From an uncultured bacterium (GTDB lineage: Bacteria; Verrucomicrobiota; Kiritimatiellia; RFP12; UBA1067), in NCBI GenBank assembly GCA_902788415.1, contig CADAKF010000014.1, forward strand, positions 1-54,299: a stretch of DNA of 54,299 bases. Reading direction: 5' to 3'. This document shows positions 6,311-54,299 of the stretch, in pieces. Under the pieces are notes generated by a model. The model did no database searches and was not told the origin of the DNA. It worked only from the letters and a program-made list of their open reading frames with translations. The position numbers and the translations under genes were made by a program. Position 1 is the first letter of the stretch, and every line of letters starts with the position of its first letter.

Positions 6311-7482
6311 ACCGCCGCGGAGTCGGCGGTGGCGATGGCGTTCCAGTCGTACTGGCTCGAGCAGATGCGGCCGAGGTTCTGGAGACGGGCGTATTCGGCC
6401 GGGTCGTTGAGGATTCGGGCGACCGCATGGGCGAACATCGCCTGGTCGAAGCAGGGGACCGCGGAATAGGCGCCGGGATAGATCTTGCGATAGGCGGGAA
6501 GGTCGTAGGCGACGACGGGGAGTCCCGCGGCCATCGCCTCGCAGACGGCGATGCCCCAGCCTTCCTCATGGCTCGGCGCAAAGAGGATCTTCGCCTCCTT
6601 GATCTTGGCATAGTAATCTGCCGCGGGGAGGAATCCGTTCGCGGGCTTGAAGACGGTGATCGGGAGCTTGAGCCGCTCAATCTCCTTTACGACTTCCGCT
6701 TCGCCGCTCATGCCGCCCATCAGGGTGAGGGTCGTGTCGGGACGCAGCTTCTGGACCATCTGCCAGATCGGGATGATGTCATGGAGGCCTTTGTTGGGAC
6801 GGACACCGATCATGACGGCGTCGGTGAGAGGGTGAGAGGGTGAGAGGGTGAGAGGGTGAGTCGCTTGGATTGTGGAGAGGTCAATGCCGTTTTGCATACG
6901 GCGGATGCGGGACTTGTCCATGCCGAGGGCGAGGAGCCGGCGCTCGATCTCGTCGCCAGCGAGCGTATCGTTGATCCAGGCGGCGTCCGCATGGGCTGCG
7001 ATGCGCTTGAAGCTCCAGCGCTGCATGCGGAAGGTGAGCTCATTGACGAGGCGGTTACCGGGACGCAGCTTCGGATCCGTTTCGCAGTGGTGAATCCAGG
7101 CGATCCACTTCGCGCCCGTGCGCTTCTTGAGGGCGAGCGCGGGGATGATGTCGCAAAAGTAGTCGCTCACAGTGACGAGGACATCCGTCCGCGGCAGTTT
7201 TGCCGCGTGGAAACGCCAGAGGATCGAGGTGACGAGATAGCTCCAGAAGCGGAAGGGACGGCACGGCTCGCTTTTGAGAAGAAACGACGCGGGGACGACG
7301 GTCATCGGGAGCTTGCAGCCGAGTGTCGTCTGCATGGTCTTGCCGCCGGGTGTCGTCAGGAGGTGCTGGACGCGTCCGTCCGCGGCAAACCGCTTCGAGA
7401 CCTCGTGGAAGCGGACAGGGGCGCCGGTGATGCCGCGTCCCTCGAGTCCGCATCCGTTCAGTATCCAGAGTATGGATTTCAT
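6307..7482 (-). CDS. Glycosyltransferase family 4 (GT-B)
   Basis: 'SHEEGWGIAVCEAMAAGLPVVAYD' is the GT4 C-terminal motif. 391 aa. Confidence 0.8.
   Translation of the reverse strand: MKSILWILNGCGLEGRGITGAPVRFHEVSKRFAADGRVQHLLTTPGGKTMQTTLGCKLPMTVVPASFLLKSEPCRPFRFWSYLVTSILWRFHAAKLPRTDVLVTVSDYFCDIIPALALKKRTGAKWIAWIHHCETDPKLRPGNRLVNELTFRMQRWSFKRIAAHADAAWINDTLAGDEIERRLLALGMDKSRIRRMQNGIDLSTIQATHPLTLSPSHPLTDAVMIGVRPNKGLHDIIPIWQMVQKLRPDTTLTLMGGMSGEAEVVKEIERLKLPITVFKPANGFLPAADYYAKIKEAKILFAPSHEEGWGIAVCEAMAAGLPVVAYDLPAYRKIYPGAYSAVPCFDQAMFAHAVARILNDPAEYARLQNLGRICSSQYDWNAIATADSAAV
6823..6862. repeat. 8-bp tandem repeat (GGTGAGAG x4 + GGTGAGTC) inside the GT4 CDS
   Basis: Read directly. Translated on the - strand as 'THPLTLSPSHPLT'. 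Confidence 0.95.
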
Positions 7483-9159: not shown

Positions 9160-9636
9160 ATGGCAAAGAAGGTCAAGGATCCGCGTCCGAGCTGGGACGA
9201 ATACTTCATGGACATCGCGGCGGTCGTCGCGAAAAGATCCAATTGCTCGCGTCGCTCGGTCGGCGCCGTGATCGAACGCAACCACCACATTCTCTCCGCT
9301 GGCTACAACGGCACTCCGAAGGGCGTGAAGAACTGCTTCGAGGGTGGCTGTCCGCGTTGTGCCGGGAAGGTGAAGAGCGGCACACATCTCGACGAGTGCC
9401 TCTGCACGCACGCCGAGCAGAACGCGATTTGCCAGGCCGCGTGCTACGGGTTGCCGATCGACGGCTCAACCATTTATGTCACAATCTCGCCGTGCCTTAC
9501 CTGTGCGAAGCTGATTATCAACGCGGGCATCAAGGAGGTCGTCTACGGCGGCGACTACGCCTTTCTCGACACGGTCAAGAAGATGTTCAAGGCGGCCGGC
9601 GTAAGACACCGGAAGTACAGAAGTTTGAAGGTTTGA
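9160..9636 (+). CDS. dCMP deaminase (ComEB-type)
   Basis: 'SWDEYFM', 'HAEQNA' and 'PCLTCAKLI' zinc-binding deaminase motifs. The stop lies inside the octamer array. Confidence 0.85.
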   Translation: MAKKVKDPRPSWDEYFMDIAAVVAKRSNCSRRSVGAVIERNHHILSAGYNGTPKGVKNCFEGGCPRCAGKVKSGTHLDECLCTHAEQNAICQAACYGLPIDGSTIYVTISPCLTCAKLIINAGIKEVVYGGDYAFLDTVKKMFKAAGVRHRKYRSLKV

Positions 9637-9706
9637 AAGTTTGAGAGTTTGAAAGTTTGAGAGTTTGAAAGTTTGAAGGTTTGAAAGTTTGAGAGTTTGA
9701 AAGTTC
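9623..9706 (+). repeat. 8-bp tandem array GTTTGARR x10.5
   Basis: Read directly. Spans the cdd stop and the cdd-tpiA spacer. Confidence 0.95.
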
Positions 9707-9728: not shown

Positions 9729-10493
9729 ATGAGCAGGAAGAAAATCATTGCTGGTAACTGGAAGATGAACGTGAAGCCGTCCGAGACCGCGGCTCTCATC
9801 AAGGCCGTCGCCGAGGCGACGGCGCAGTTCGGCGACAAGGTCGAGATCGTGTGCTGCACGCCTGCGATCGACGTCCCGGCCGCCGTTGCGGCCGCCGCGG
9901 GCACGAAGGTCGGCGTCGGCACGGAGAACTGCCACTGGGAGGATCACGGCGCGTTCACCGGCGAGATCTCGACGGGCATGATCGTCGATGCGGGCGCGAA
10001 GTACGTCATCACCGGCCACAGCGAGCGTCGCCAGTACTTCGGCGAGACGGACGAGACGGTCAACAAGCGCACGCGCGCCGCGATCGCCGCGGGCCTCACC
10101 TGCATGATGTGCGTCGGCGAGACGCTCGACGAGCGCGAAGCCGGCAAGCTCAACGAGGTGATCGAGCGTCAGATGAACGTCGGCCTCAAGGACGTGACGG
10201 CGGCGGACTGCGCCAAGCTCGTCATCGCCTACGAGCCCGTGTGGGCCATCGGCACCGGCAAGACCGCGACGCCCGACCAGGCGCAGGAGGTCCACGCGCT
10301 CATCCGCGCGACTCTCGCGAAGCTCGTCGGCGCGGAGACGGCCGAGACCGTGCGCATCCAGTACGGTGGCTCCATGAAACCAGGCAACGCGGCGGAGCTC
10401 CTCGCGAAGAAGGACATTGATGGCGGCCTCATCGGTGGCGCGGCGCTCAAGGCCGAGGACTTCGCCGGAATCATCGCGGCGGCGGCCAAGTAA
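9729..10493 (+). CDS. tpiA: Triosephosphate isomerase
   Basis: 'AGNWKMN', 'GHSERR', 'AYEPVWAIGTGKTA', 'YGGS'. Confidence 0.95.
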   Translation: MSRKKIIAGNWKMNVKPSETAALIKAVAEATAQFGDKVEIVCCTPAIDVPAAVAAAAGTKVGVGTENCHWEDHGAFTGEISTGMIVDAGAKYVITGHSERRQYFGETDETVNKRTRAAIAAGLTCMMCVGETLDEREAGKLNEVIERQMNVGLKDVTAADCAKLVIAYEPVWAIGTGKTATPDQAQEVHALIRATLAKLVGAETAETVRIQYGGSMKPGNAAELLAKKDIDGGLIGGAALKAEDFAGIIAAAAK

Positions 10494-10530
10494 GCTGTTA
10501 GCTGTTAGCGGTTAGCTATTAGCGGTTGGC
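10494..10530 (+). repeat. 7-bp tandem array (GCTGTTA-type heptads x5), single arm
   Basis: gctgtta gctgtta gcggtta gctatta gcggttg, immediately after the tpiA stop. Confidence 0.9.
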
Positions 10531-10545
10531 GTGAAGAGGAGTTGT

Positions 10546-11178
10546 ATGCGATATTCGATTATTCGATTATTCGATTATTCGATTATTTCTCTCGCGCTTT
10601 GCGCGACGGGCTGCTTCAACGAGCCGGAGCCGGCGTACAAGTCGGTTCCGGCCGAGAACCGCGTCTATCTGAGTGACAAGGGACTAAAGGACCTTAAGTC
10701 TTGCGCTGCGCTTAGAAGCGGAAAGGATTCCGCTTCCCCCCTCGGGATGGATTACCTCAACCTCGACCGCAACCAGCTGACGAACGTCGATGCGGTTGCG
10801 AAGCTTGAGGGGCTCAAGTGGCTGCGGCTCAACGACAACAGGTTGTCCGCGCTGCCGGACCTGAAGGGACTCGTCAACCTCCGTCGCATCTACCTGAAGA
10901 ACAACGGCTTCAAGGCGGTGCCGGAGACGTTGAAGGACCTGCCGGCCCTGACCGACATCGACCTTTCGGGCAATCCGCTCAAGGAGGTGCCGGCGTGGCT
11001 CGCGGAGAAGAAGGGGCTCAAGAACCTTTCCTTCTCGCGGACGCAGGTCTCGAAGCTTCCGGAGAATCTTGAGGCGTGGAAGTCGCTCCAGTCGCTCCAG
11101 CTCGGGGACTTGAACATCTCCGCGGCGGAAATGGCGCGAATAAGAAAAGCGCTCCCAAATGTCGCAATCGTCTTCTAA
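10546..11178 (+). CDS. Leucine-rich-repeat lipoprotein
   Basis: Lipobox-like 'SLALCATGC' followed by repeated LxxLxLxxNxL units. GAGGAG lies upstream of ATG 10546. Confidence 0.7.
   Translation: MRYSIIRLFDYSIISLALCATGCFNEPEPAYKSVPAENRVYLSDKGLKDLKSCAALRSGKDSASPLGMDYLNLDRNQLTNVDAVAKLEGLKWLRLNDNRLSALPDLKGLVNLRRIYLKNNGFKAVPETLKDLPALTDIDLSGNPLKEVPAWLAEKKGLKNLSFSRTQVSKLPENLEAWKSLQSLQLGDLNISAAEMARIRKALPNVAIVF
10553..10588 (+). repeat. 8-bp tandem repeat ATTCGATT x4.5 inside the signal-peptide coding region
   Basis: Read directly; encodes 'YSIIRLFDYSII'. Confidence 0.95.
10699..10743 (+). repeat. Full copy of the palindromic in-frame element
   Basis: tcttgcgctgcgcttagaagcggaaaggattccgcttcccccctc; translated 'SCAALRSGKDSASPL'. 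Confidence 0.9.
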
Positions 11179-19428: not shown

Positions 19429-19765
19429 TCTGTATGCAACGGTCAATGAGCACTCGTTGAAACGATTTTGTGCTATAATACTCTTGTCCTGTGAAAGTCG
19501 GGATGATCCGAAGTCGGCTCTCACCACCTCCAAGCGGGACAAAGAACGCGTAACCACGCGGACTTGATCGTTCTGATGAAACGTCCAAACTTCTGAAACG
19601 AGCGACATGTCCTGCGAGGGGCGCGCATGGCTGAACAATCAGCCGGGCGTGTCTCTTTGCACCCATGTTTTCGTTTCGGGCTTTGGACGGCCTCATCAGA
19701 GATCACGGGTGAAGGAGGCACGCCCGCTCTATTTGTCTCTGTGCGAGTATGGTGTGGAGGTGTCG

Positions 19766-22204
19766 ATGAAGATTAAATGCAAGAAATGCGGCGAGGTGAT
19801 TGTCGTAGCGGACGATATTGTCCCAGGGCAGCACGTTCGTTGCCCGTATTGCGACGAAAAGTTTGCATATGATGTTGAAAAGGTCGGGATATCTGGCGAA
19901 GATTTACGTACGGCGCTTGCAGAATGTCGCAAGGATAAGGAACTCAACGCTTATTACAAAAATGCGCCGCTGGGAGCGCGTCTGTATATTGCGCTCGTGT
20001 TTTACGGTAAGGTTTTCCGAGATGCGCTTGACAAGGATGCGTACGTAAAGGCGTTTGCGGAAATTGGCGGAGAGCTTAAGGAGCGGGATTTGCGGTATCT
20101 TCTGCAACACGAGGATGATGAGTCCATGCGCGAGTACCTCTCTGACAGGTTGGCAGCATCGGTTGGCAGAAGTGATGACCCCATTAGGGCCGGAGATGCC
20201 AAGGGACGCTCCAGGTTCGGGATAATTCGACCATCTGTGCCAAAGCATGCCGATGTCAATCCCGAAGTTGAAAGAAGGATGGCGATTCAAGAGCGGAGTG
20301 AGAAAACCCGTGTGCAAGCAGAAGAATGCGAATGGCGCAGGAAGATAATCGGCTCGGCCGTGAACGGCGTGATCATTTGCGCTGTCCTAATTGTCGGATG
20401 GATTGTTTACTTGGCATGGCACGACAGGCAGGTACAGGCGCGGCGAGAACGTCTTGAGGCGGTCCAAGCCGAGAAAGAACGCGAGGAGAAAGAGAAGCAG
20501 GAGCGTGACAGGCAGGAGGCGGAAGAGCGTGCCAGACAGGACCGTGAACGGGCTGAACGTCTTGAGCGTGAACAGAAGGAGCGCGTGGAGCGCCGTCGGA
20601 TTGCGGCGGAAGACGAAGAACGGCGAAAGAAAATCGACGAGGAGAACCGGATCCGTGAGGAGGCGGAGAAACGGCAGGAAGAGTATCGTGACATCGTTGT
20701 TTCATTGAGCGACCGTGAACTTCTTCGCGAGGTGACTTTGCCTGAGAAAATGCGCCCTGGAAGGGCTGTACGCAAGTTCCTTTGCATGTTGCCCGTAGAT
20801 CAGGATGAATTTGTACTTTACGAAGTCGAGACTGATGCCGAGGGGAAAACGGTGGCAGTGGCGCTCTCTGGGGAGAAAGGTCGCGAACAGGTTGATTTTC
20901 AAGAATTGAAGAAACGGATCGAAAAAACAGGATGCATTTTCTGTGATAACGAAAAGGCCTATTTTCGCCCGAGGAAGGCGAAGAGACCCAATGAGTTCCA
21001 AATGCCTGTGGATTCACAGGTCTTTGAGCCGTGGAATGCCATGTTTGGAGAGATGTTGCCTGTCATCAAGAAATTCAACTTCAGATGCAACGTCTTTGCG
21101 CTCGATGTGTTTATGCTGCAAAAGGGTGAAGATGCCGTGAAGGTCACCCGACTCGAGCCATTTGATGCTGTCGCGCTGTCGCAATTCAAGGATATCGTAC
21201 GCCAGGATCTGCTTGAAAGGAAGGGCGCCGCAGCAATGAAGCGCCCGATTAAGATCAAGAGGCCCGTGATAACTGTCAAATTGTACGATGGGGATATTGT
21301 CAAGAAGGATGCGCGGGGCAACACATATGTTCCGCGCGAGTTCCCACAGCCGAAAGGATATTCCAATTTCAGGCCGCATAACTACTATGATGGACGGATC
21401 TGCAATTGCGGTTTGTGCAAAAAATACCGTTCGTGGGAGGATTTGCGCGACGAAGCCGTCAAGCAAGAGAGAGCTGTGGCCGAGTACGAGGTGGAAATAG
21501 AAAACGCCAGGGAGAGGAGGCGGAACGCGGTGAGAGTTTCCGACGACGAAGTTGACGCTATACTCAAAAAATTACGTGTACGAGTTGTCTATGCCAAGGA
21601 GCAGATTGATGATGCGAACGAAGAAGAGGGCTTTGGGGCGATAACTCCGCAAGTAAAGTCGCCGGAGGTTGGATGTGCGAGTGGAAGCGTGACGGACGAG
21701 TTGTCAGCGGTGGGAATTGCGCGGCTCAATGCCCGGCTTAAGTACAGGAGCTTCTGCGGGATTGAGTTCGGGATGGTGGAAGAGCGTATTGATCCGTGCA
21801 ATGGACGAGGCGGCGATTTGCCGACGGCATTCAGGCATTTCAAATCCTATTCAAAGTACGGCTCAAAGGTTTTTCATCGTGTTGCGAAAATTGATTTAAA
21901 CGGGAAGATAACAAATGCGAGTATTGACAGCTTCAAGAAGGAAATTCGGCAGACGGTTGCCGTCCTTTCAAAGAAATATGGCATGACCTTTGACGTTGTC
22001 AAAGAGTCGGACGAACGTTTTGCGATGGGATTCGAAGATCAATATGTCAATGTTGTAGTCGGTGGATATTATTCCAATGGCGAGGCGTCGTTCTACATCG
22101 GATTCACCAATAAGCAAGTTGACGAGCAAAATGACGCAATCTGGTCGCGGCATCCTGGCAAGGATATCAGTATGCCGAGTAATGCTGGGCTTGATGTGTT
22201 GTAA
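19766..22204 (+). CDS. Orphan 812-aa protein: MJ0042-type zinc ribbon + single TM helix + ER/K-rich coiled coil + uncharacterised C-terminal domains
   Basis: 'MKIKCKKCGEVI..VRCPYCDEKF', TM 'IIGSAVNGVIICAVLIVGWIVYLAW', about 110 aa of E/R/K repeats. GGAGG precedes ATG 19766. Confidence 0.6.
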   Translation: MKIKCKKCGEVIVVADDIVPGQHVRCPYCDEKFAYDVEKVGISGEDLRTALAECRKDKELNAYYKNAPLGARLYIALVFYGKVFRDALDKDAYVKAFAEIGGELKERDLRYLLQHEDDESMREYLSDRLAASVGRSDDPIRAGDAKGRSRFGIIRPSVPKHADVNPEVERRMAIQERSEKTRVQAEECEWRRKIIGSAVNGVIICAVLIVGWIVYLAWHDRQVQARRERLEAVQAEKEREEKEKQERDRQEAEERARQDRERAERLEREQKERVERRRIAAEDEERRKKIDEENRIREEAEKRQEEYRDIVVSLSDRELLREVTLPEKMRPGRAVRKFLCMLPVDQDEFVLYEVETDAEGKTVAVALSGEKGREQVDFQELKKRIEKTGCIFCDNEKAYFRPRKAKRPNEFQMPVDSQVFEPWNAMFGEMLPVIKKFNFRCNVFALDVFMLQKGEDAVKVTRLEPFDAVALSQFKDIVRQDLLERKGAAAMKRPIKIKRPVITVKLYDGDIVKKDARGNTYVPREFPQPKGYSNFRPHNYYDGRICNCGLCKKYRSWEDLRDEAVKQERAVAEYEVEIENARERRRNAVRVSDDEVDAILKKLRVRVVYAKEQIDDANEEEGFGAITPQVKSPEVGCASGSVTDELSAVGIARLNARLKYRSFCGIEFGMVEERIDPCNGRGGDLPTAFRHFKSYSKYGSKVFHRVAKIDLNGKITNASIDSFKKEIRQTVAVLSKKYGMTFDVVKESDERFAMGFEDQYVNVVVGGYYSNGEASFYIGFTNKQVDEQNDAIWSRHPGKDISMPSNAGLDVL

Positions 22205-24324: not shown

Positions 24325-24327
24325 GCA

Positions 24328-24394
24328 GCTTTTAGCGGTTAGCTGTTAGCTATTGGCTTTGGACACTAACCGCTAACCGCTAACAGCTAACCGC
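24328..24394. terminator. Inverted repeat built from AGCTGTT/AACAGCT-type heptads (prs-pth spacer)
   Basis: Left arm gctttta gcggtta gctgtta gctattg; right arm ctaaccg ctaaccg ctaacag ctaaccg; 8-nt loop. Confidence 0.6.
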
Positions 24395-24398
24395 GACA

Positions 24399-24971
24399 AT
24401 GAGAATCATCGTCGGACTGGGGAATCCTGGAGCCCAATACGCCAATACTCCGCACTCGGTTGGTTTTGAGGCGGTCGATGCAATCGCTTCGGAGATTGGC
24501 GCGAGTTGGGAGGAGAAGCGTCAGTTCAAGTGCCTGTGGGCGAAGGGGAATTTCGCCGGACAGTCCGTCATCCTTGCAAAGCCCCAGACCTACATGAACC
24601 TCTCCGGCGAGTCGGTCGCCCCGCTCGTTAGGTATTCGAACGCGACCGCAGCAGATCTCCTTGTCATTCAAGACGACATCGACCTGCCGGTCGGGCGGAT
24701 GCGCGTCAGGAAGAACGGCTCCTGCGGCGGACACAACGGCATCCGCAACATCATCGAGCGTCTCGGCACGCAGGATTTTGCGCGTCTTAAGCTCGGGGTC
24801 GGCAAGGACAAGAGCGATGTCATCGCGCATGTCCTCGGCAAGTTTGACCCGGCGACGCGCCAGACGATGGACCGGGTGGTGGCCGAGGCGGTCAAGGCCG
24901 CTGCGGCGATTCTCCGCGACGGTCCCGACCGCGCGATGAACGCCTACAACGGATGGAGTACGGATGGCTGA
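24399..24971 (+). CDS. pth: Peptidyl-tRNA hydrolase
   Basis: 'GLGNPG', 'TPHSVGF', 'GGHNGIRNI'. Confidence 0.95.
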   Translation: MRIIVGLGNPGAQYANTPHSVGFEAVDAIASEIGASWEEKRQFKCLWAKGNFAGQSVILAKPQTYMNLSGESVAPLVRYSNATAADLLVIQDDIDLPVGRMRVRKNGSCGGHNGIRNIIERLGTQDFARLKLGVGKDKSDVIAHVLGKFDPATRQTMDRVVAEAVKAAAAILRDGPDRAMNAYNGWSTDG

Positions 24972-27627: not shown

Positions 27628-30114
27628 ATGTCGAGAGACCTGATGCCATTTCCCGTTGAGGAGAAGATCGACGAGGTTGCCGCGGCGCTCGCGAAGAATC
27701 GCGACGTGGTGCTGACGGCGCCGCCCGGCAGCGGCAAGACGACGTGCGTGCCGCCGGCGCTCCTCGACGCGCCGTGGCTCAAGGGCAAGAAGATTGTGAT
27801 GCTCGAGCCGCGGCGGCTCGCGGCACGGAACTGTGCGGCGTATATCGCAAAGAGGCGCGGCGAAGCGATTGGCGAGACGGTTGGGTTTTCCGTCCGGCTC
27901 GAGCGCAAGGTCTCTGCAAAGACGCGGCTCGAGGTCGTGACGGAGGGGCTCCTGACAAACCGGATTCTCGGCGACCCCGAGCTGAAGGACGTTGGACTTG
28001 TGATCTTCGACGAGTTTCACGAGCGGTCGCTTCAGTGTGACCTGGCGTTTGCGCTGGCGCTGGAGGTGCGACGGGCGCTCAGGCCCGATTTGAGAATTCT
28101 CGTCATGTCCGCGACCTTGGACGCCGACGAGGTGGCGGCGCATCTCGGCGATGCGGACATCGTGCGTGCCGAGGGTCGGATGTTTCCGGTGGAGACCGTG
28201 TATCTCGGCGACTTGCCGATGTCCGCGGCGATTTCAAAGGCGCTGAAGGAGACGGAGGGGGATATTCTGTGCTTTTTACCGGGGGAGTCCGAAATAAGGA
28301 GGGTGAGAGAATCTTGCGCTTCGCTTACAAGCGGAAAGGATTCCGCTTCCCCACTCTTTTTGCCGCTCTACGGCAGCTTGCCGAAGGAAGAGCAAGACAA
28401 GGTGTTTTCCGCTGTTCAACCTTCAACCTGCAGCCTTCAACCTGCACCACGAAGAGTGGTGCTGGCGACGTCGATTGCGGAGACGTCGGTGACAATTGAG
28501 GGGATTACGTGCGTCATCGATTCGGGACTGATGCGGGTGCCGCGGTTCTCGCCGTCGACGGGGATGTCGGGACTGGTGACGCTTCCGCTGACACAGGACC
28601 GCGCGGAGCAACGGCGGGGCCGTGCGGGACGCGTGAGGGCGGGTGTCTGCTATCGTCTTTGGACCGAAGGACAGCAGCAGTCCCGTCCGAAGCGGATGAT
28701 GCCGGAGATCCTCGAGACGGACCTTTGCTCGCTCGTCTTGACAAGCGCGGCGTGGGGGGCGCTTGGGCGTGAGGACTTGCCGTGGATGACACCTCCGGCT
28801 GTGAGCCTGTGGGATCAAGCGGTCGGGCTTCTGAAGATGCTGGGCGCCTTGGACAAGGACGGACGACTGACGGCGAAGGGCGAGAAGATGGCGAAGCTCC
28901 CGATGCATCCGCGGCTGGCAAACATGCTTCTCGCCGCGGGCGCGAACCATGAATCGGAGAAAAGAGGTGGAGGTGGAGAACGCGGCGTGGCCGTTCTGGC
29001 TGCAATCATTGAGGAGGGCTCAAAAAGCCGCGAGACCGATATTCGGTATGTTCCCGTCACCCCTCGAGTCAAAGAACTGTCTAAGAGATTTGCGTTCCAT
29101 TGCTCACCTACACCTCACACCTTCACCTTGAGCGCCGGAGGCGCTCTTGCTCTCGCGTATCCCGACAGAATTGCCAAGAACAGGGGGAACGGGACGTTCC
29201 GGATGGTGAACGGGCGGGGCGCGTTCCTGCCGGAGGACGATCCGATGGCGAAGGAGCCGTACATTGTCTGCTGCGAACTCGACGACCGGGCGGGAGATGC
29301 GAAGGTCTTTCTCGGGTGTCCGATCGCGGAAGAGGAGATAGTGGAGCTGTTCGGGGACGAGATCGCCGAGGAGCCGTACTGTGCCTGGGATCGGCAGAAC
29401 GAGCGGGTGAAGTGCGTCGTACGGCGCAAGCTCGGCGAAATGACGCTGGGGGAGCGGATTTTAAACACAGAGACGCAGAGACACAGAGAAGGGATTGAAA
29501 AAGCGTTGTTGGAGGGAATCAGAGTCAAAGGCGTCGAGAATCTCCCGTGCTGGACGAAAGACACGCTGCAGCTCAAGTCTCGAATCAATTTTCTTTCCAA
29601 ATCCTCTGTGTCTCAGTGTCTCTGTGTTGAAAATCCATGGCCGAAAATTGACGCTGCGACGTTGCTGCCGGCGATGGAGGGGTTTGTCGGGGGAATGGCG
29701 AAGTGGCGGGACCTGGAAAAGCTGGATATTGCCGCGGTGATGGACTTCATCTTGTCCGAGGCGGGGCATGACCGGCGGGAGCTTGACCGGCTGGCGCCGA
29801 CGCGGATGGAGGTGCCGAGCGGGAGTCACATGACGATTCACTACGAGGGTGACGAGCCGACGGTGAAAGTGCGGCTGCAGGAGTGCTTTGGACTGATGGA
29901 GACGCCGAAGGTAGCGGGCGGAAAGGTGCCGATCGTGATGACGCTTCTGAGCCCGGCGCAACGTCCAATCCAGATCACCAAGGATCTGGCTGGATTCTGG
30001 AAGGGGGCGTATCAGCTGGTCCGCAAGGACATGCGCGGACGCTATCCGAAGCATTACTGGCCGGAGGATCCGTTTGCTGCCGTCGCGACCCGGCGAGTTC
30101 GTCCCAAGGTATAG
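27628..30114 (+). CDS. hrpB: ATP-dependent RNA helicase HrpB
   Basis: 'APPGSGKTT', 'DEFHERS', 'SATLD', 'TSIAETSVTIEGI', 'QRRGRAGR' and the HrpB C-terminal domain. Confidence 0.9.
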   Translation: MSRDLMPFPVEEKIDEVAAALAKNRDVVLTAPPGSGKTTCVPPALLDAPWLKGKKIVMLEPRRLAARNCAAYIAKRRGEAIGETVGFSVRLERKVSAKTRLEVVTEGLLTNRILGDPELKDVGLVIFDEFHERSLQCDLAFALALEVRRALRPDLRILVMSATLDADEVAAHLGDADIVRAEGRMFPVETVYLGDLPMSAAISKALKETEGDILCFLPGESEIRRVRESCASLTSGKDSASPLFLPLYGSLPKEEQDKVFSAVQPSTCSLQPAPRRVVLATSIAETSVTIEGITCVIDSGLMRVPRFSPSTGMSGLVTLPLTQDRAEQRRGRAGRVRAGVCYRLWTEGQQQSRPKRMMPEILETDLCSLVLTSAAWGALGREDLPWMTPPAVSLWDQAVGLLKMLGALDKDGRLTAKGEKMAKLPMHPRLANMLLAAGANHESEKRGGGGERGVAVLAAIIEEGSKSRETDIRYVPVTPRVKELSKRFAFHCSPTPHTFTLSAGGALALAYPDRIAKNRGNGTFRMVNGRGAFLPEDDPMAKEPYIVCCELDDRAGDAKVFLGCPIAEEEIVELFGDEIAEEPYCAWDRQNERVKCVVRRKLGEMTLGERILNTETQRHREGIEKALLEGIRVKGVENLPCWTKDTLQLKSRINFLSKSSVSQCLCVENPWPKIDAATLLPAMEGFVGGMAKWRDLEKLDIAAVMDFILSEAGHDRRELDRLAPTRMEVPSGSHMTIHYEGDEPTVKVRLQECFGLMETPKVAGGKVPIVMTLLSPAQRPIQITKDLAGFWKGAYQLVRKDMRGRYPKHYWPEDPFAAVATRRVRPKV
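28312..28356 (+). repeat. Full copy of the palindromic in-frame element (in hrpB)
   Basis: tcttgcgcttcgcttacaagcggaaaggattccgcttccccactc; translated 'SCASLTSGKDSASPL'. Confidence 0.9.
28414..28448 (+). repeat. Heptad array gttcaac cttcaac ctgcagc cttcaac ctgcacc in hrpB
   Basis: Read directly; encodes 'VQPSTCSLQPAP'. Confidence 0.85.
29103..29130 (+). repeat. CACCT-rich low-complexity tract in hrpB (complement of the GGTGARG family)
   Basis: ctcacctacacctcacaccttcaccttg; encodes 'SPTPHTFTL'. Confidence 0.7.
29464..29628. repeat. Inverted pair of CACAGAGA-type arrays flanking about 110 nt of native hrpB coding sequence
   Basis: Left aacacagagacgcagagacacagagaagg (29464-29492); right cctctgtgtctcagtgtctctgtgtt (29603-29628). 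Confidence 0.85.
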
Positions 30115-42927: not shown

Positions 42928-43808
42928 AGTTCTCCCTGTCCACGAACTGGTGCAACCGGCGAATCGAGTCCGGACGCGAAATCGCCGAGAAGGCGAGGGA
43001 GCTCGGTTTTGACGAACTTGAGCTCGGTTTCCACACGACGGCCGTGCAGGCGAAGGAAATCGCTGCACTCCGCGATGCGATTCCCGTTGGCAGCATTCAC
43101 GCGTTCTGCCCCGTGCCGATCAGCGCGCCGCAGGGCTATCCCGAGCTCTATCTTCTTGCGGACTTTGACGACGAAACGCGCAAGATGGCGCAGATCCACG
43201 TCCGTCGGAACATTTTCTTTGCCGCGGAAACAGGGGCGGACACGGTCGTGCTGCACGCGGGGCGGGTGATGTGCCGAGGCTTCCTGCGCCGGTGGGATAT
43301 GAAACGCCGCGTCAGCCGTGGGCGGAAGATGCTCGACGTCTTCAAGAAGGAGCTTGCTGCCCTCGTTCCCGTTCTCGAACAGACGAAGGTTACGCTCGCT
43401 CTCGAGAACCTTCCCTACCTCGAGGGCTTTCCGGCGGAATGGGAGATCGGCGAACTGGTCGGAGACTGGGTGAAGCCGTGGCTCGACACGGGGCATGACT
43501 TCGTGAGACGGGCGAATCGGTGGACTGTTCCGTTTTTAACGAGCGGAAAGGATTCCGCTTCTCCGCTCTTACAGCCCGTTGGCCTGCACATCAGCGATTC
43601 GCTTGGTGAAGACGACCATCTTGCGCCGGGCGCGGGAAAGGTCGACTTCGCCGCCCTCGGGGACATGGCGCGGCAGGCGCGGCATCTTGTCTTCGAACCG
43701 AACCCCGGCGTGACCGAAGAGGAACTCAAGAAGGGCCTGGCCTTTATCCGGGAGCTTTGGTCGCCCCAGAAGGCCACGCCGGACTCCGATCGCCAAACGC
43801 TCAGCTAA
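42924..43808 (+). CDS. Sugar phosphate isomerase/epimerase (xylose-isomerase-like TIM barrel)
   Basis: 'GFDELELG', 'VVLHAG', 'LALENLP'. ATGA overlap with the holB stop. Confidence 0.65.
   Translation: MKFSLSTNWCNRRIESGREIAEKARELGFDELELGFHTTAVQAKEIAALRDAIPVGSIHAFCPVPISAPQGYPELYLLADFDDETRKMAQIHVRRNIFFAAETGADTVVLHAGRVMCRGFLRRWDMKRRVSRGRKMLDVFKKELAALVPVLEQTKVTLALENLPYLEGFPAEWEIGELVGDWVKPWLDTGHDFVRRANRWTVPFLTSGKDSASPLLQPVGLHISDSLGEDDHLAPGAGKVDFAALGDMARQARHLVFEPNPGVTEEELKKGLAFIRELWSPQKATPDSDRQTLS
43541..43568 (+). repeat. Core copy of the palindromic in-frame element
   Basis: gagcggaaaggattccgcttctccgctc; translated 'TSGKDSASPL'. Confidence 0.85.
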
Positions 43809-43820
43809 CCACTAACAGCT
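43803..43820 (+). repeat. Short AACAGCT-family heptad tract (single arm)
   Basis: agctaaccactaacagct, spanning the stop codon and the spacer. Confidence 0.6.
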
Positions 43821-43824
43821 TTCC

Positions 43825-46800: not shown

Positions 46801-47742
46801 TTTGCCGCGTTCGAGGAGAACGGGACACTTCCGAACATCATCTACGGCAAGACCGCCGGCAACCGCGACACGACTGACGCGCAGCTCTGGTTCGTCCGCT
46901 GCGTACAAGAAATGTTTGAAAGTTTGAACGTTTCAAGGTTTGAAGGTTCGGGGGATAAACTCTCAAACTCTCAAACCCTCAAACATTCAAACCTTTTCAA
47001 AACCTGCGAATCAATTGTCGACAACTACATCAAGGGGACTCCGAACGGAATCCACATGGATCCTGAGTCTGGCCTCGTCTGGTCGCCGTCGCATTTCACC
47101 TGGATGGACACGAACTATCCGGCCTGCACGCCGCGCGTCGGCTACCCCGTCGAAATCCAGGCGCTCTGGATCAGTGCGCTCAGGTTCCTTGGCCGCGACG
47201 AACTTGCGGCAAAGGCGCAGGTCTCGCTCGAAAGGCTCTTCAAGTGGGAGTTTGGCTATCGCGACTGCCTGGCGGCGCCGCACGGAGAGCCGGCAGCACA
47301 GGCGATGCCGGAGGATACGATCCGTCCGAACCAGCTCTTCCTCATCACGTTGGGCGTCCTAAAAGACAAGTCGATCCTGCGCGCGACGGAAGAGCTGCTC
47401 GTGCCGGGCGGTGTCCGCTCCCTGAACGCGCTGCATCCGCTTTACCGCGGCATTTATGCGGGCGACGAGAATACGGCGAGAAAACCCGCCTATCACAACG
47501 GCACGGTCTGGGCGTGGCCGTTTCCGCTCTATGCGGAGGCGCTTGTCGCGGCCGGGGCCTGCACGAAGGACGTCGCGCTCTCGCTGCTCGCCGGTGCGGT
47601 CGAAAACCTGAACACGGGCTGCCTCTGTCATTTGAGCGAAAACGCTGACGGCGATGCGCCGCACGCGCAGAAGGGTTGCACGGCCCAGGCCTGGAGCGAC
47701 TCGGAGCTTCTACGCGTCTGGTTGAAGCTCGGTGGCAAGTAA
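43825..47742 (+). CDS. 1305-aa fusion: GH13 alpha-amylase-family catalytic domain + amylo-alpha-1,6-glucosidase (GDE C-terminal) domain
   Basis: GH13 regions 'DLPANH', 'GFRCDAGYM', 'FMLEGLGG', 'FAETHDN'. C-half 'GYPWFLDWGRDTFI' and 'WMDT' are typical of glycogen debranching enzymes. Confidence 0.8.
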   Translation: MTQIPKTEDFLLKWRGDTLTVTLKLDAPRKGRAAFRTNIGHASIRRREIIDETEKGLTPLAKAWTDIPLKEVSPGLFRADIRLDEVGVFSGKACFFPEGSHVPEWPEGRNTHIKVESGETRAGNSIYCVFPRQFGSFREVIRRLPLIMDTMGFRIVQTLPPFPVPTTYAVMGEYGCPFAATDFLSVDPAMAEFDERATPLDQFKELIGAVHARNGLMLIDLPANHTGWASTLQTHHPEWFHRRDDGRFVSPGAWGVTWADLVELDYSNPELRTYMADVFLFWCRLGVDGFRCDAGYMISAETWEYIVAKVREEYPDTIFMLEGLGGSLETTDRLLAESNLDWAYSEVFQTYDRGQFEWYLPNAIARAEKYGALVHFAETHDNDRLAKGGETYAKLRVQLAALLSWQGAWGIANGVEWFCTEKIDVHGKNGLNWGADRNMVGLIARLNGILRTHPSFTGPGRLEVVTRGDGNTLAVVRHADNICDSLLVLANLDCCHPAQIDWARPKYDHSETFDVLSGRKVCAAGPVELGPGEVLCLRTAESPDARAVRPEIPKPAREPLFHIVMPRDAKRDVVVPEGQLVEVSAPTRFRVRLVDPETGKTVRVRRSDDANRAIFDAPHYHGDGGRCRALHLDVAIYRDGRAEQMRSRFLVPPPARKAKMRLSLSGEEVRCAPNGRTVLSNGAGAAAQVRVGWGEIRSQYDAFLAANPNPSVPSDRLNLWARTRCWLQREGYTRELDKKCVTRFTADPAGRFARWEFAVPCGMGKETAFVFTLSLAEKANAATLAVERVAAVARDVGDQVRLVFRPDIEWRSFHATTKAYRGPDSLFPKSSVPTTGGFAFSPYGETFTMSVDGGEYHHEPQWCYNVGHPEEAARGQDGSGDLFSPGWISADLKVGETCKIVASLGESPSPTSSVSSSKTPPAQDSRRETKDVIGFADSLRRSLELYIVRRDDLKTVIAGYPWFLDWGRDTFIFMRGMIAAGMTDDALKILQAFAAFEENGTLPNIIYGKTAGNRDTTDAQLWFVRCVQEMFESLNVSRFEGSGDKLSNSQTLKHSNLFKTCESIVDNYIKGTPNGIHMDPESGLVWSPSHFTWMDTNYPACTPRVGYPVEIQALWISALRFLGRDELAAKAQVSLERLFKWEFGYRDCLAAPHGEPAAQAMPEDTIRPNQLFLITLGVLKDKSILRATEELLVPGGVRSLNALHPLYRGIYAGDENTARKPAYHNGTVWAWPFPLYAEALVAAGACTKDVALSLLAGAVENLNTGCLCHLSENADGDAPHAQKGCTAQAWSDSELLRVWLKLGGK
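46545..46620. repeat. In-frame hairpin module of the CGTCTYC/GRGACG family in the GDE gene
   Basis: cacgtcttccgtctc (46554-46568) pairs 14/15 with gagacgaaagacgtg (46606-46620). Encodes 'SPSPTSSVSSSKTPPAQDSRRETKDV'. Confidence 0.8.
46914..47004. repeat. In-frame inverted repeat of GTTTGARR octamers in the GDE gene
   Basis: Left arm gtttgaaa gtttgaac gtttcaag gtttgaag. Right arm is the complement (ctcaaac units). Encodes 'FESLNVSRFEGSGDKLSNSQTLKHSNLFKT'. Confidence 0.9.
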
Positions 47743-49966: not shown

Positions 49967-50551
49967 ATGAGAAAAGCCAAAATCGCGCGGAATACGAAGG
50001 AAACGCAAATTAAGCTCGAGTTGAACCTGGACGGATCCGGCAAGGGCTCAATCGACACCGGTATTGGGTTCTTTGACCACATGCTGGAGCTCCTGAAGAA
50101 GCATGCGCTCATCGACTTGACGGTCAAGGCCAAGGGGGATCTCAAGGTCGATTACCACCACACGGTTGAGGACGTGGGACTCGTCTTCGGGCAAGCCCTC
50201 GACAAGGCGCTCGGGGACCGCAAGGGGCTGACGCGCTACGGCTTCGCCTCGATCCCGATGGACGAGGCCCTGTGCGAGACCTCGCTCGATCTCGGGGGGC
50301 GTCCGTTCCTCGTGATGCAGTGCGCGATGAAGCACATGATGGTGAAGGATTTTGAGGTAAAACTCGTGGAAGAGTTTTTCCGCGCGGTCTCCGTCGAGAG
50401 CCGGTCGAACATCCATCTCCGCCAGATTTATGGCGACGAGGCGCATCACGTTTGCGAAGGGCTCTTCAAGAGCTTTGCGCGCGCGCTCCGTGCGGCGAAA
50501 GCCATCGATCCGAAAGAAAAGGGGATTCCAAGTTCAAAGGGGGTCATTTAG
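49967..50551 (+). CDS. hisB: Imidazoleglycerol-phosphate dehydratase
   Basis: 'RNTKETQI', 'GIGFFDHML' and 'HH..E' motifs. Confidence 0.95.
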   Translation: MRKAKIARNTKETQIKLELNLDGSGKGSIDTGIGFFDHMLELLKKHALIDLTVKAKGDLKVDYHHTVEDVGLVFGQALDKALGDRKGLTRYGFASIPMDEALCETSLDLGGRPFLVMQCAMKHMMVKDFEVKLVEEFFRAVSVESRSNIHLRQIYGDEAHHVCEGLFKSFARALRAAKAIDPKEKGIPSSKGVI

Positions 50552-50647
50552 CTGTTAGCTCTTGGCCGTTAGCTGTTAGCGCAAGAGGACAAGGAAACAA
50601 ATGCCAACAGCTAACAGCTAACAGCTAATCGCTAAAAGCTAAAAGCT
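50551..50647. terminator. Long inverted repeat of AGCTGTT/AACAGCT heptads (hisB-hisA spacer)
   Basis: Left arm 50551-50582, 20-nt spacer, right arm 50603-50647 (gccaaca gctaaca gctaaca gctaatc gctaaaa gctaaaa). Confidence 0.6.
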
Positions 50648-51373
50648 ATGATAATTCTACCAGCGATTGATTTGAAAGACGGGAAGTGCGTGCGCTTGAG
50701 GCAGGGACGCGCCGAGGATGTCACGGTCTACGGGGACGATCCCGCGGCGCAGGCGAAGGACTGGGCCGACCAGGGTGGCAAGGAGCTGCATGTCGTCGAT
50801 CTGGACGGGGCGTTTGCGGGCTCACCGAAGCACGCCGAGGTCATTCGGCGCATCATCCAGGCGTTCGGGGGCCCCGTGGAGGTTGGCGGCGGGTTGCGGA
50901 CGCCGGAGGCCCTGGCGGCGGTCATCGAGGCAGGCGCGGCGCGCGCCATCATCGGCAGTGCTGCACTGGACGATCCGGAGTTTCTTTCGCAGGCGGTCGA
51001 GCTTTACGGCGACAAGATTGCGGTCGGCATCGATGCGCGCAACGGCTATGTGCAGACGAAGGGCTGGGTTGAGACGACGAAGACGCTGGCGACGGAGCTT
51101 GCCACGGCGGTTGCGAAGGCCGGCGTGAAGACGATCATCTACACGGACACGGCGACGGACGGCATGTTGGGAGGTCCAAACCTCACCCAGATGGCGGCGA
51201 TTTGCGATGCGGCGCCGACATGCCATATCACGGCTTCGGGCGGCGTCAGTTCGCCGTTTGACCTCGAAAACCTCAAGGCCCTGGAGCGACCGAACCTCCG
51301 GGCTGCGATTGTCGGCAAGGCGCTGTATGACGGGCGGACGACTCTGAAGGAAATGAATGTCGCCGCATTATAG
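50648..51373 (+). CDS. hisA: ProFAR isomerase HisA
   Basis: 'ILPAIDLKDGKCVRL', 'VVDLDGA', 'GGGLR'. Confidence 0.95.
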   Translation: MIILPAIDLKDGKCVRLRQGRAEDVTVYGDDPAAQAKDWADQGGKELHVVDLDGAFAGSPKHAEVIRRIIQAFGGPVEVGGGLRTPEALAAVIEAGAARAIIGSAALDDPEFLSQAVELYGDKIAVGIDARNGYVQTKGWVETTKTLATELATAVAKAGVKTIIYTDTATDGMLGGPNLTQMAAICDAAPTCHITASGGVSSPFDLENLKALERPNLRAAIVGKALYDGRTTLKEMNVAAL

Positions 51374-51379
51374 CAATAG

Positions 51380-51446
51380 GCGATTGGCTTTTAGCGGTTA
51401 GCGAAAACGTCAACTGCTAAAAGTTAACTGCTAACAGCTAAAAGCT
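51380..51446. terminator. Inverted repeat of AGCTGTT/AACAGCT heptads (hisA-peptidase spacer)
   Basis: Left gcgattg gctttta gcggtta gcg; right ctgctaaaagttaactgctaacagctaaaagct. Confidence 0.55.
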
Positions 51447-51447
51447 T

Positions 51448-52710
51448 ATGCCGAGTGTTGTTCAGTTTAATAATGGATTGAGAGCCTTGTTCGTTCCGTG
51501 CGAGGCTGAGTCTGTCGCGGTCGGGCTTTTCATTGCGTCCGGATCGCGCCACGAGACCGCGAAGACCGCCGGTATCTCCCATTTCATCGAGCACATGCTT
51601 TTCAAGGGCACGCCGACGCGCAAGCCCGTGGACATCACGCGTGCGATCGAGGGACGCGGCGGCAACTTTAACGCCTGCACGGGCGAGGAGGCGACGTGCT
51701 ATTTCGCGCATCTCCCCTGTGAGTATCTCGCCGAGGCGGTGGACATCCTGTCCGACATGTATCTCCGGGCGACGATTCCGTCCGACGAGTTCGCCCGCGA
51801 GAAGCAGGTGATTCTCGAGGAGATTCGCATGTACGCGGACGAGCCGGACTCCGTTGCAATGGAGAACCTGCAGCGCGCGCTCTTCCCGACGTCCACGCTC
51901 GGCGCACCTGTCGCCGGTACGCCGGAATCGCTGAGGCCGATGAAGCCCGTCGACCTGAAGCGCTACATCAAGTCGCACTATCTTCCGTCCAACACCGTCG
52001 TCGTCATCGTCGGCAATTTCGATGAGGCGAGGGCCGTGAATCTGGCGGAAAAGTCCTTTGGGAGAGAAGCGAAATCCCTTCCGCATCAGAAGAAGGACGG
52101 TTCGCTCTTCTCTCGAAGCGGAAAGGATTCCGCTTCCCCCCTCTTGGGGAAGCCGATTTCCCGTGTCTCGGCTTCCAAGGAAATCGCCCAGACCCAGCTC
52201 GCGCTCGGCTACCGCACGTTCGGCATCTGTGACAACCGCAAGTACGCGGCGACGGTGATGGATGCAATCCTCGGGCGGGGCATGTCGAGCCGGCTCTTCC
52301 AGGAGGTGCGAGAGAAGCGCGGTCTCAGCTACGACATCTCGTCGCGGATGCAATTCTTCCAGGACGCTGGGATGTTCACGGTCACGGCAGGACTGGATCC
52401 GTCGAAGGCGAAGGACGCGCTTGATACGATTGACCGCGAGCTTAGGCGCATCCGCGAGAAGTCGATCTCCGCAGCGGAACTGAAGCGCACGAAGGAGTTC
52501 CTGATCGGCAACTTCCGCCTCTCACATGAGAAGGTGACGTCGAAGCTTTTTTTCTACGGACAGACGATGTTGTCGTTCGGACGCCTCGTTTCGCCGCAAG
52601 AGCAGGTCGAGGGCATCCGCGCCGTCACTGCGGCGGACGTGAAGGCCGTCGCCAACGCCATTTTGAAACAGTCAAACAGAAGCATCAGCTGGGTGGTGCC
52701 GCGAAGTTAG
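51448..52710 (+). CDS. M16-family zinc metallopeptidase (insulinase-like)
   Basis: 'HFIEHMLFKGT' HxxEH motif; 420 aa. Confidence 0.85.
   Translation: MPSVVQFNNGLRALFVPCEAESVAVGLFIASGSRHETAKTAGISHFIEHMLFKGTPTRKPVDITRAIEGRGGNFNACTGEEATCYFAHLPCEYLAEAVDILSDMYLRATIPSDEFAREKQVILEEIRMYADEPDSVAMENLQRALFPTSTLGAPVAGTPESLRPMKPVDLKRYIKSHYLPSNTVVVIVGNFDEARAVNLAEKSFGREAKSLPHQKKDGSLFSRSGKDSASPLLGKPISRVSASKEIAQTQLALGYRTFGICDNRKYAATVMDAILGRGMSSRLFQEVREKRGLSYDISSRMQFFQDAGMFTVTAGLDPSKAKDALDTIDRELRRIREKSISAAELKRTKEFLIGNFRLSHEKVTSKLFFYGQTMLSFGRLVSPQEQVEGIRAVTAADVKAVANAILKQSNRSISWVVPRS
52101..52143 (+). repeat. Copy of the palindromic in-frame element with a degenerate 5' half
   Basis: ttcgctcttctctcgaagcggaaaggattccgcttcccccctc; translated 'SRSGKDSASPL'. 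Confidence 0.85.
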
Positions 52711-52752: not shown

Positions 52753-54299
52753 ATGAAGAAGATGAACGTCGTACAGAAGATTCTCTCCAAGCACCTCGTC
52801 GAAGGCGACCCCGCGGTCGATTCCGAGATCGGCATCCGCATCGACCAGACCCTGACGCAGGATGCGACGGGGACGATGGCGTACCTGCAGTTTGAGTCGA
52901 TGGGCGTGAGGCACGTCAAGAACGACCTCGCCGTCAGCTACGTCGACCACAACACCGTGCAGATTGGCTTTGAAAACGCCGACGACCACGACTTCCTCGC
53001 CTCAATTGCCAAGAAGTACGGCATCGTCTACTCCAAGGCCGGCAACGGCATCTGCCACCAGCTCCACCTCGAACGCTTCGGCAAGCCGGGAACGACGTTG
53101 CTCGGGTCTGACTCGCATACGCCGACGGGCGGCGGCATCGGACAGATCGCCATTGGCGCAGGTGGTATCGACATTGCGGTCGCCATGGCGGGCGGCGCAT
53201 TCCACATCCCGACGCCGAAGGTGCGGGCGATCGTCCTCAAGGGCAAGCTCCGCAAGGGTGTGAGCGCAAAGGACGTGATCCTGAAGGTGCTGGAGAAGTT
53301 CGGCACGAAGGGCAACGTGGGCTGGATCTTTGAGTACACGGGTCCGGGCGTCGCGACGCTGGACGTTCCCTCGCGCGCGACGATCACCAACATGGGCGCG
53401 GAACTGGGCGTCACGACGAGCGTGTTCCCGTCCGACAAGGTGACGAAGCAGTTCCTCGCGGCACAGGGTCGCGCGAAGGACTTTACCGAGATTGTCGCCG
53501 ACAAGGGCGCAACCTATGACGATACGTTCGTAGTCGACCTCGCGAAGCTCGAGCCGCTTGCCGCTGCGCCGCATTCGCCGGGCAACATCGTGACGGTGAA
53601 GTCGATGAAGGGCACGAAAGTCAATCAGATCATGATTGGCTCATGCACGAACTCGTCCTACCGCGACATCCGCACGGTGGCGCAGATCCTGAAGGGAAAG
53701 CACGTCGCCGAAGACGTCGAGGTCGGCATCGCGTGCGGTTCCCGCCAGGTCGTCAACATGCTGGCGGCGGACGGGTCGCTCGCGATTCTCATCAAGGCGG
53801 GCTGCCGCATCCTCGAGAACGCGTGCGGCTTCTGCATTGGCGCGCACATGTCCCCATCCACAAACGCCGTGTCGCTCCGCACCAACAACCGCAATTTCGA
53901 GGGCCGCAGCGGCACCAAGTCCGCCCAGGTCTATCTCGTCTCGCCGGAGACGGCGGCGGCCTCGGCGCTGACCGGTACTTTTTCCTCAGCACAAACAGCT
54001 AACAGCCAACAGCTAAAAGCCGTGCGCCCTCCGGCGCACTTCCCGATCGACGATGGTTCCTCTACCGCAGGACGGCGGGCAAGGGCGTTGCAGGCACGAA
54101 GATCGTCCGCGGTCCGAACATCGCTACGGTGCCGAAAGGTGTGCCGCTCGCGAAGGACCTGAAGGGCGCATGCGCGATCAAGGTCGGGGACAAGATCACG
54201 ACGGACCACATCATGCCGGCCGGCGCGCGGCTCAAATTTCGCTCCAACGTGCCGCAGTACGCGAAGTTCGTCTTCGAGCCGTGCAATCCGAAGTTCCAC
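52753..54299 (+). pseudogene. acn: Aconitate hydratase, apparent 1-nt frameshift near 54055; 3' end beyond window
   Basis: 'GSDSHTPTGGG', 'IGSCTNSS' and 'NRNFEGRSG' in the frame of 52753. After '..FPIDDG' the conserved continuation 'GTKIVRGPNIATVPKG..GDKITTDHIMPAG' is in another frame. Confidence 0.75.
53991..54021 (+). repeat. AACAGCT-family heptad array translated inside the aconitase gene
   Basis: acaaaca gctaaca gccaaca gctaaaa gcc; encodes 'AQTANSQQLKA'. Confidence 0.85.

Follow-up and report, generated by a model that had tools for sequence, protein, structure and literature searches.

Heptad-array hairpins between operon genes of an uncultured Kiritimatiellia bacterium: probable gene-less derivatives of PF05635 cassettes

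Three intergenic hairpins in a 54,299-nucleotide stretch of DNA from an uncultured bacterium of the Kiritimatiellia (the window) consist of inverted tandem arrays of a heptad with the core GCTAA. We posit, with a probability of roughly 0.6, that they are gene-less ("empty") derivatives of small selfish cassettes that carry a gene of the PF05635 (S23p/Avd-like; "23S rRNA intervening-sequence protein") four-helix-bundle family. Solo arms are then half-cassettes, and the hairpins retain both arms in cassette polarity. The GCTAA family has multiplied to approximately 74 arrays in this species, and persisting copies are found where they do little harm, at operon gene junctions and, for families whose units leave a reading frame open, also within protein loops, where they are read in frame. 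The window corresponds to contig C14 of a MAG of 1.9 Mb (147 contigs, 61.6% G+C, 83% complete), and the relatives of its Prs protein are MAGs of Kiritimatiellia from gut and rumen.

The three hairpins share a general layout, in which three to seven tandem NNTTAGC heptads lead through a loop into GCTAANN heptads, and TRF reports all of them as period-7 arrays. Hairpin 1, between prs and pth (24328..24394, no strand assigned), is apparent from the sequence, TRF, RNA folding and a pairing scan; it has four left units at 24330-24357 (TTTTAGC GGTTAGC TGTTAGC TATTGGC), the loop tttggac and four right units at 24365-24392 (ACTAACC GCTAACC GCTAACA GCTAACC). Hairpin 2, between hisB and hisA (50546..50651, likewise unstranded), has five left units, a 22-nt loop and seven right units; hisB terminates within the first heptad, at its TAG, and the start codon (ATG) of hisA adjoins the last heptad. 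Hairpin 3, between hisA and an M16 gene (51382..51450, unstranded), has three left units, a 13-nt loop and five right units. Predicted RNA folds of hairpins 1, 2 and 3 have energies of -35.7, -42.0 and -31.6 kcal/mol, with z scores of -7.1, -5.7 and -5.3 relative to dinucleotide shuffles, 0/200 of which equalled them, and the opposite strands fold about as stably. A preliminary description of this DNA had reported three spacers made almost entirely of heptads in inverted order, the absence of a U-tract and the names of the neighboring genes. Sequence, TRF and folding agree with it on the first two points, and Pfam on every name (Prs, Pth, IGPD/HisB, HisA, M16, TIM and an aconitase-family protein). 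Its figure of 25-45 bp holds as an arm length and fails as a measure of continuous pairing, since the stems are imperfect and their longest perfect runs span just 13-16 bp. Rfam 15 returned no match at gathering score in the window.

Alignment with relatives shows that the three hairpins are recent, lineage-specific insertions into junctions at which the genes formerly overlapped or nearly overlapped. In most of 80 relatives, prs and pth overlap or are separated by 0-10 nt; relative to genomes in which the prs stop and the pth start overlap, hairpin 1 corresponds to an insert of ~79 nt, with AATGAG on either side. A target-site duplication comparable to AATGAG was seen at neither of the two his sites, and none is consistent across sites. 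The hisB and hisA genes overlap (ATGA/TGATG) or lie no more than 12 nt apart in 26/26 congeners, and hisA and the M16 gene are separated by 0-20 nt, also in 26/26; the nearest congener (L168) reads TAGcttATG at the latter junction, where in the window 71 nt are inserted after TAG and before CTTATG. Inside hrpB, an arm of TTCAACC units constitutes a 30-nt in-frame insert that is missing from aligned same-genus orthologues. A unit-like seed is present at two empty sites, TTTAGCT at hisA|M16 and CCTTC in hrpB; such seeds would also fit microhomology-seeded copying or local expansion/slippage. The prs|pth junction is occupied in some other lineages: in the relative L019 by the GCTAA family, with the heptad structure kept and the loop and flanks different, and in five relatives by other 7/8-mer arrays, with different unit families in L014, L036 and L073. 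A four-unit GCTAA pattern has 88 matches in the present genome, 0-1 in each of 12 congeners and 59-68 in three genomes of another family-level lineage.

Termination, the role implied when the hairpins were first called terminator-like, is not supported. They have no U-tract, a terminator scan found no terminator-like site at hairpins 1-3, they sit inside operons ahead of housekeeping genes (pth, hisA), and the two his sites are empty in the 26 congeners, as is the prs|pth site in most relatives. Metatranscriptome contigs from three bovine samples span hairpins 2 and 3 with no break or joint; these are assembled contigs, in which DNA carry-over is possible. Transcription runs on through the hairpins, which form part of the operon RNA, and we reject a rho-independent terminator. 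A broader version of the functional reading, in which the hairpins are host-selected RNA elements (U-tract-less terminators or attenuators, 3′-end stabilizers or RNase III sites) that tune the neighboring cistrons, strikes us as improbable. It would account for the strong stems, their exact placement between cistrons, the presence of an RNase III gene in the genome, the constancy of hairpin 1, unchanged apart from substitutions in strains of four studies, and the retention of heptads in the L019 prs|pth hairpin despite a different loop and flanks. However, the empty junctions of 26/26 congeners imply that these operons work without hairpins, RNA contigs read through, the hairpins have no U-tract and no promoter-like site 3′ of them on the coding strand, and the same units recur as solo arms and within genes.

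The arrays also appear stable in length. Hairpin 1 and the solo arm after tpiA differ by substitutions only in DNA contigs from four bovine-gut studies, and no indel or change in unit number was seen at hairpins 1-3 or the tpiA arm in contigs of the four DNA studies and three RNA samples; in such a comparison rare variants can stay hidden, and long octamer arrays act as contig break points. The between-strain comparison of array length that the preliminary description had suggested thus showed no difference in these contigs. A phase-variable contingency repeat is rejected, given the imperfect units, the housekeeping neighbors and the lack of observed length variation. In one run (X2), the 79-nt prs|pth spacer (window 24325-24405) is replaced by 76 differing letters in a second strain whose flanks are ~95% identical.

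The hairpins belong to a large population of short-unit arrays. With a threshold of at least three copies, TRF found 220 period-7 and 162 period-8 arrays in the 1.9-Mb genome, whereas two order-3 Markov genomes used as controls yielded 10 and 14 arrays at period 7, and 8 and 6 at period 8. This excess, ~20-fold above chance, is specific to periods 7 and 8; periods 5, 10 and 11 showed no elevation over the Markov genomes. Merging leaves 371 arrays, which fall into ~130 unit families and have a median length of 4.3 copies (interquartile range, 3.7-4.9); heptamer arrays of at least three copies are dispersed over many loci. The genome-wide heptad scan proposed earlier identified 74 GCTAA-type arrays (variants AACAGCT, AACCGCT, AATCGCT and AAAAGCT), which form 14 hairpins. 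Every one of these close inverted pairs follows the order [NNTTAGC]n-loop-[GCTAANN]n, with no instance of the reverse (14 RF versus 0 FR), a fixed orientation that goes together with the preference for ~4 units, and their loops, 0-49 nt long, are mutually unrelated. Polarity is likewise fixed in the GAAAGTTT family (5/5) and in the AATAATCG family (4/4, including this genome's own cassette, described below). Variant units are mixed within arrays, unit order recurs between loci, and several families possess a conserved non-repeat head at one end, e.g., TCCGCYG or TTAAA.

GCTAA elements typically occupy the whole spacer, with edges -6 to +20 nt from both genes, and present TAG or TAA every 7 nt, so that stops occur in three frames on both strands. 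As many as 51 of the 52 intergenic elements lie in co-directional junctions. The anticipated enrichment between co-directional genes is nevertheless not borne out, because 93% of junctions genome-wide are co-directional by our own rough gene calls. By the same calls, 28% of co-directional adjacent pairs overlap, an unusually operon-like and compact layout. Arrays that block all frames on both strands number 65 and are all intergenic, which follows from the definition of blocking every frame; ~160 arrays are internal to ORFs, and open-frame families are often found inside genes. As the gene caller is crude, these genome-wide counts inside and outside genes are approximate, and the Pfam check covers the window examples only. 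One hairpin elsewhere (C51:2879-3004) has two GCTAA arms between which the opposite strand carries a classical intrinsic terminator, GGCACCCCGG...TTTTTTG.

The link to PF05635 comes from a survey of genes of this family, first in seven genomes and subsequently across 101 genomes of the order, with control windows taken from other parts of those loci. Inverted tandem arrays of 6-8-nt units stand on both sides of 25/36 PF05635 genes and form the same bracket in 1/398 control windows; at seven further PF05635 loci an array is present on one side only, and contig ends truncate several of these loci. A full cassette measures ~0.45-0.6 kb and comprises a gene of ~120 aa between arms of 3 to >20 copies of a 6-8-nt unit. 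At a locus in genome G090 (L124), (NNTTAGC)x4, a 121-aa ORF and (GCTAANN)x5 follow one another with the unit and polarity of the window hairpins; an IMG/VR contig (L264) contains a second, independent GCTAA-armed cassette, whose protein is 37% identical to that of G090. GCTAA arms in hairpin polarity around a PF05635 gene therefore exist at two loci. Among 53 close GCTAA pairs in viral contigs, 42 have the RF and 11 the FR order, and a cassette in genome G128 (L128) carries AGCTAAC units in the opposite order. PF05635 proteins that are at least 69% identical have mostly the same arm units. Four loci (L123, L124, L125 and L130) with differing arm units (AGCGGAC, TTAGCGG, CGATAGA) have in common an inverted motif, GCGTTCCGCGAC...GTCGCGGAACGC, immediately internal to the arms. 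A metagenome scan for an arm plus the inner motif (TTAGCNNGCGTTCCGCGAC) gave 30 matches, 29 attributable to chance and one a real arm on a truncated contig.

The present genome has PF05635 loci of its own on contigs C36, C47 and C2 (three hits, one weak), and they adjoin its three longest arrays. The cassette at C36:18404-19087 (L133) has arms of the AATAATCG/TATTCGAT family, which also occurs at window positions 10552-10587 and in three hairpins, so that a cognate full cassette is present in the same genome for AATAATCG units. Its upstream arm contains 26 AATAATCG units with a higher-order repeat of ~45-55 nt (aataatcg x3 + aaacgggggaagtgagaaat), and its downstream arm 4.4 units. At C2:50624-51100, an internally deleted four-helix-bundle pseudogene lies between arms and is an intermediate towards a hairpin. 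The AGCATCTG-family arms that enclose it (C2:50560-51160) are themselves within a further 45-nt inverted repeat. A similar pair at C30:20498-20980 has a 413-nt gap with no recognizable gene and no family match. At C47:171-560 (L127), the downstream arm includes a run of N and the four-helix-bundle ORF is seemingly fused to the next gene, which shows that the arrays break or blur the assembly. A GCTAA-armed cassette was found neither in this 83%-complete MAG nor in the GCTAA-rich genomes G114 and G134, which argues that arrays persist without a cognate gene; the genome holds ~130 unit families and just 3-4 cassettes. No remnant of a cassette interior was recognized in the hairpin loops. These findings weaken the cassette reading, as do the opposite order in L128 and in 11 of the 53 viral-contig pairs, the inconsistent target-site duplications, the seeds at two empty sites and the lack of a known catalytic activity of S23p.

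The principal rival to descent from cassettes is that the arrays are ordinary long simple-sequence repeats (LSSRs) of the heptanucleotide type described by Mrazek, grown by local slippage from unit-like seeds, with hairpins and cassette flanks as by-products and no mobile element involved. Heptamers are the commonest class of bacterial LSSRs according to the summary of Mrazek 2007 given in PMC4679880, and slippage would also fit the seeds at two empty sites, the differing families at prs|pth in L014, L036 and L073 and the lack of any transposase, RT or Y1 gene that tracks array richness. Even so, we regard it as unlikely. Against slippage stand arrays that are imperfect and mix variant units in an order shared across loci, conserved non-repeat heads (TCCGCYG, TTAAA), a 14:0 hairpin polarity and a family that is abundant here and in three genomes from a separate family-level lineage yet absent from 12 congeners, along with the absence of observed unit-number changes in strains from four studies and the tight association with PF05635 (25/36 versus 1/398).

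Mobilization by a different gene appears very improbable, whether the arrays are regarded as REP/REPIN-like elements moved by a Y1 (RAYT-type) transposase or as arms of GxxExxY (PDDEXK_3) nuclease cassettes. The genome does have four Y1_Tnp matches, and GxxExxY genes of relatives are bracketed by inverted CACAAAGAA x3 arms, yet no array adjoins any Y1 gene, Y1 presence bears no relation to GCTAA richness (G090, a rich genome, has no Y1), the genome lacks a PDDEXK_3 gene, and the GxxExxY arms observed belong to another unit family. We accordingly assign the hairpins neither to REP/BIME-RAYT elements, as the Y1 genes neither are flanked by nor co-occur with the repeats, nor to GxxExxY cassettes. 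Loci of the latter kind with inverted CACAAAGAA x3 arms (L115, L116, L118, L121 and L122) show a parallel cassette architecture built around another gene. Retro-mobilization of the RT/Avd type is also rejected: three RVT_1 genes are present here and none in three other GCTAA-rich genomes.

If the hairpins derive from PF05635 cassettes, they could be (i) deletion derivatives or (ii) elements mobilized by cassettes. Their tolerance within operons might be explained as follows. With stops in three frames in both arm orientations, the upstream gene is closed at once, and hisB indeed stops within the first heptad, at its TAG. The stem would loop out the insert and place the stop codon at its 5′ base beside a start codon 2-5 nt past its 3′ base; the terminating ribosome could melt the base of the stem and free the start region. 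Translational coupling would thereby be kept, making the insertion near neutral. Judging from S23p intervening sequences, the stem may well be cleaved by RNase III. The four-helix-bundle protein of this genome matches PDB 2GSC (pentameric Xanthomonas XCC0516) and, weakly, bAvd. We know of no catalytic activity for S23p proteins; speculatively, the pentamer may read ~4-5 tandem units, one per subunit.

The hairpins extend a known, if poorly understood, kind of repeat to a new phylum and a new unit. The closest parallels are the GGGAATC repeats of Xanthomonas, 70-75 convergent inverted pairs of heptamer arrays to which no gene was linked (Rehm 2015, PMC4692102), and the cyanobacterial STRR and TAACTGA repeats (MacGregor 2015, PMC4679880). 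All are dispersed heptamers, mostly of ~4 units, between aligned ORFs; the Xanthomonas pairs are fixed in orientation and transcribed, as here, and forward TAACTGA repeats (PMC4679880) supply three-frame stops and abut start codons, as do GCTAA arms. The preliminary description rightly set the layout apart from classical REP/BIME elements and rho-independent terminators, but inverted heptamer pairs have this precedent (PMC4692102). The present repeats differ in phylum and in their unit, GCTAANN, which is not G-rich and hence forms no G-quadruplex, as well as in the dozens of 7-/8-nt families, many in frame in genes, within one 1.9-Mb genome. Neither of the two papers (PMC4692102, PMC4679880) ties the arrays to a gene cassette. 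We find that the accB-accC junction of a Xanthomonas contains a gene for a homologue that shares 86% identity with 2GSC, with the arrays known from PMC4692102, (GGGAATC)x4 and inverted (NATTCCC)x4, on its two sides.

The intervening sequences (IVS) of 23S rRNA in Coxiella, Leptospira and Salmonella (PMC4990558) likewise have a terminal inverted-repeat stem around a PF05635 gene or around nothing, and are considered selfish elements that the host tolerates since their stem keeps the flanks together. In Coxiella, the 28-bp terminal stem is cut by RNase III and has tandem GACAGAT heptamers, whose number varies between strains (PMC4990558). IVS differ in residing in helices 25/45 of 23S rRNA and in being excised by RNase III, whereas the arrays described here occupy mRNA junctions and coding loops and show no excision; membership in the strict 23S rRNA IVS class is rejected because of this location and the absence of joints in RNA contigs. 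REP/REPIN-RAYT systems offer another likeness, as dispersed intergenic palindromes in solo and paired forms whose full form flanks one small gene. However, REP arms are 20-40-nt imperfect palindromes with a GTAG head instead of tandem short units, and the RAYT gene encodes a Y1 transposase, in contrast to the four-helix bundle bracketed here, to whose arrays the Y1 genes are unlinked. Rickettsia RPE and intragenic REPs of Opitutus are selfish in-frame repeats in housekeeping genes that are read as extra surface loops, comparable to the insertions in the GT4, HrpB, GDE and aconitase-family genes (below), but they are unique palindromes of 100-150 nt as opposed to tandem arrays of 28-40 nt, and the GCTAA family, unlike them, is nearly excluded from genes by its stop codons. 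Foldback (FB) transposons of Drosophila have long inverted termini made of tandem short repeats, and most copies are gene-less; they are eukaryotic, of kilobase scale and dependent on a different enzyme.

A wider proposal, to which we give rather less than even odds, is that PF05635 genes with tandem arms form one undescribed class of selfish cassettes across phyla, and that empty hairpins and solo arms are the unexplained heptamer/octamer repeats of bacteria. If true, it would unite cyanobacterial STRR, Xanthomonas GGGAATC, Beggiatoaceae TAACTGA and the IVS of 23S rRNA. To our knowledge, tandem repeats of 7-8 nt have been catalogued in bacteria since 1990 with no origin given, and S23p proteins and rRNA intervening sequences have been without a function for equally long. 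In the literature searched, we did not find S23p cassettes suggested as the source of bacterial heptamer repeats, a question that becomes testable in a culturable organism (Xanthomonas). For annotation, many of the "linker" peptides and spacers of genomes like this one are inserted repeats, and hairpins of this type do not warrant annotation as terminators.

Within the window, the solo arms reported earlier after tpiA, near 43803 and inside the aconitase gene are all present, with 5, ~2.5 and 4 units, respectively. The first, of NNTTAGC-type units (10489..10530, plus strand), directly follows the tpiA stop and fills the junction to the next gene. The second, a short arm of GCTAANN units (43803..43822, plus strand), extends from the stop of a xylose-isomerase-like TIM-barrel gene to the start of an amylase/debranching-enzyme gene. 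The third (53994..54021, plus strand) is in frame past the aconitase domain, near the C-terminus of the aconitase-family protein; its in-frame unit junction reads CAA, not TAA.

Arrays of other families were confirmed within window genes by Pfam and translation, as was the aconitase-family arm. A (CTCTCACC) x4.8 array (6823..6860, minus strand) contributes THPLTLSPSHPLT, in frame, to the interdomain linker of a two-domain GT4 glycosyltransferase. HrpB accommodates three arms: the (TTCAACC)n arm with a TCCGCTG head (28415..28446, plus strand, in frame) and, as seen by TRF and translation, two arms of the CTCTGTGT family at 29465-29489 and 29604-29627. An octamer-array hairpin, GAAAGTTT x4.9 / AAACTCTC x4.5 (46909..46992, plus strand), is in frame in the GDE_C domain of the amylase/glycogen-debranching gene. 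Elsewhere in the window (19607-22204), an 865-aa ORF has a low coding score and no Pfam match. The octamer arm TATTCGAT x4.5 (10552..10587, plus strand), of the family that forms the arms of the C36:18404-19087 cassette, falls within the 5′ end of an ORF for an LRR protein (window 10531-10600) and would encode MRYSIIRLFDYSII; this peptide immediately precedes a lipobox-like LALCATGC, and the repeat may thus form the n-region of a signal peptide. In four bovine-gut metagenomes, the summed contig depth at 9621-9705 and 10552-10587 reaches 400-1400x, as against ~10-25x in the flanks, so these octamer arrays are common to many rumen loci or organisms.
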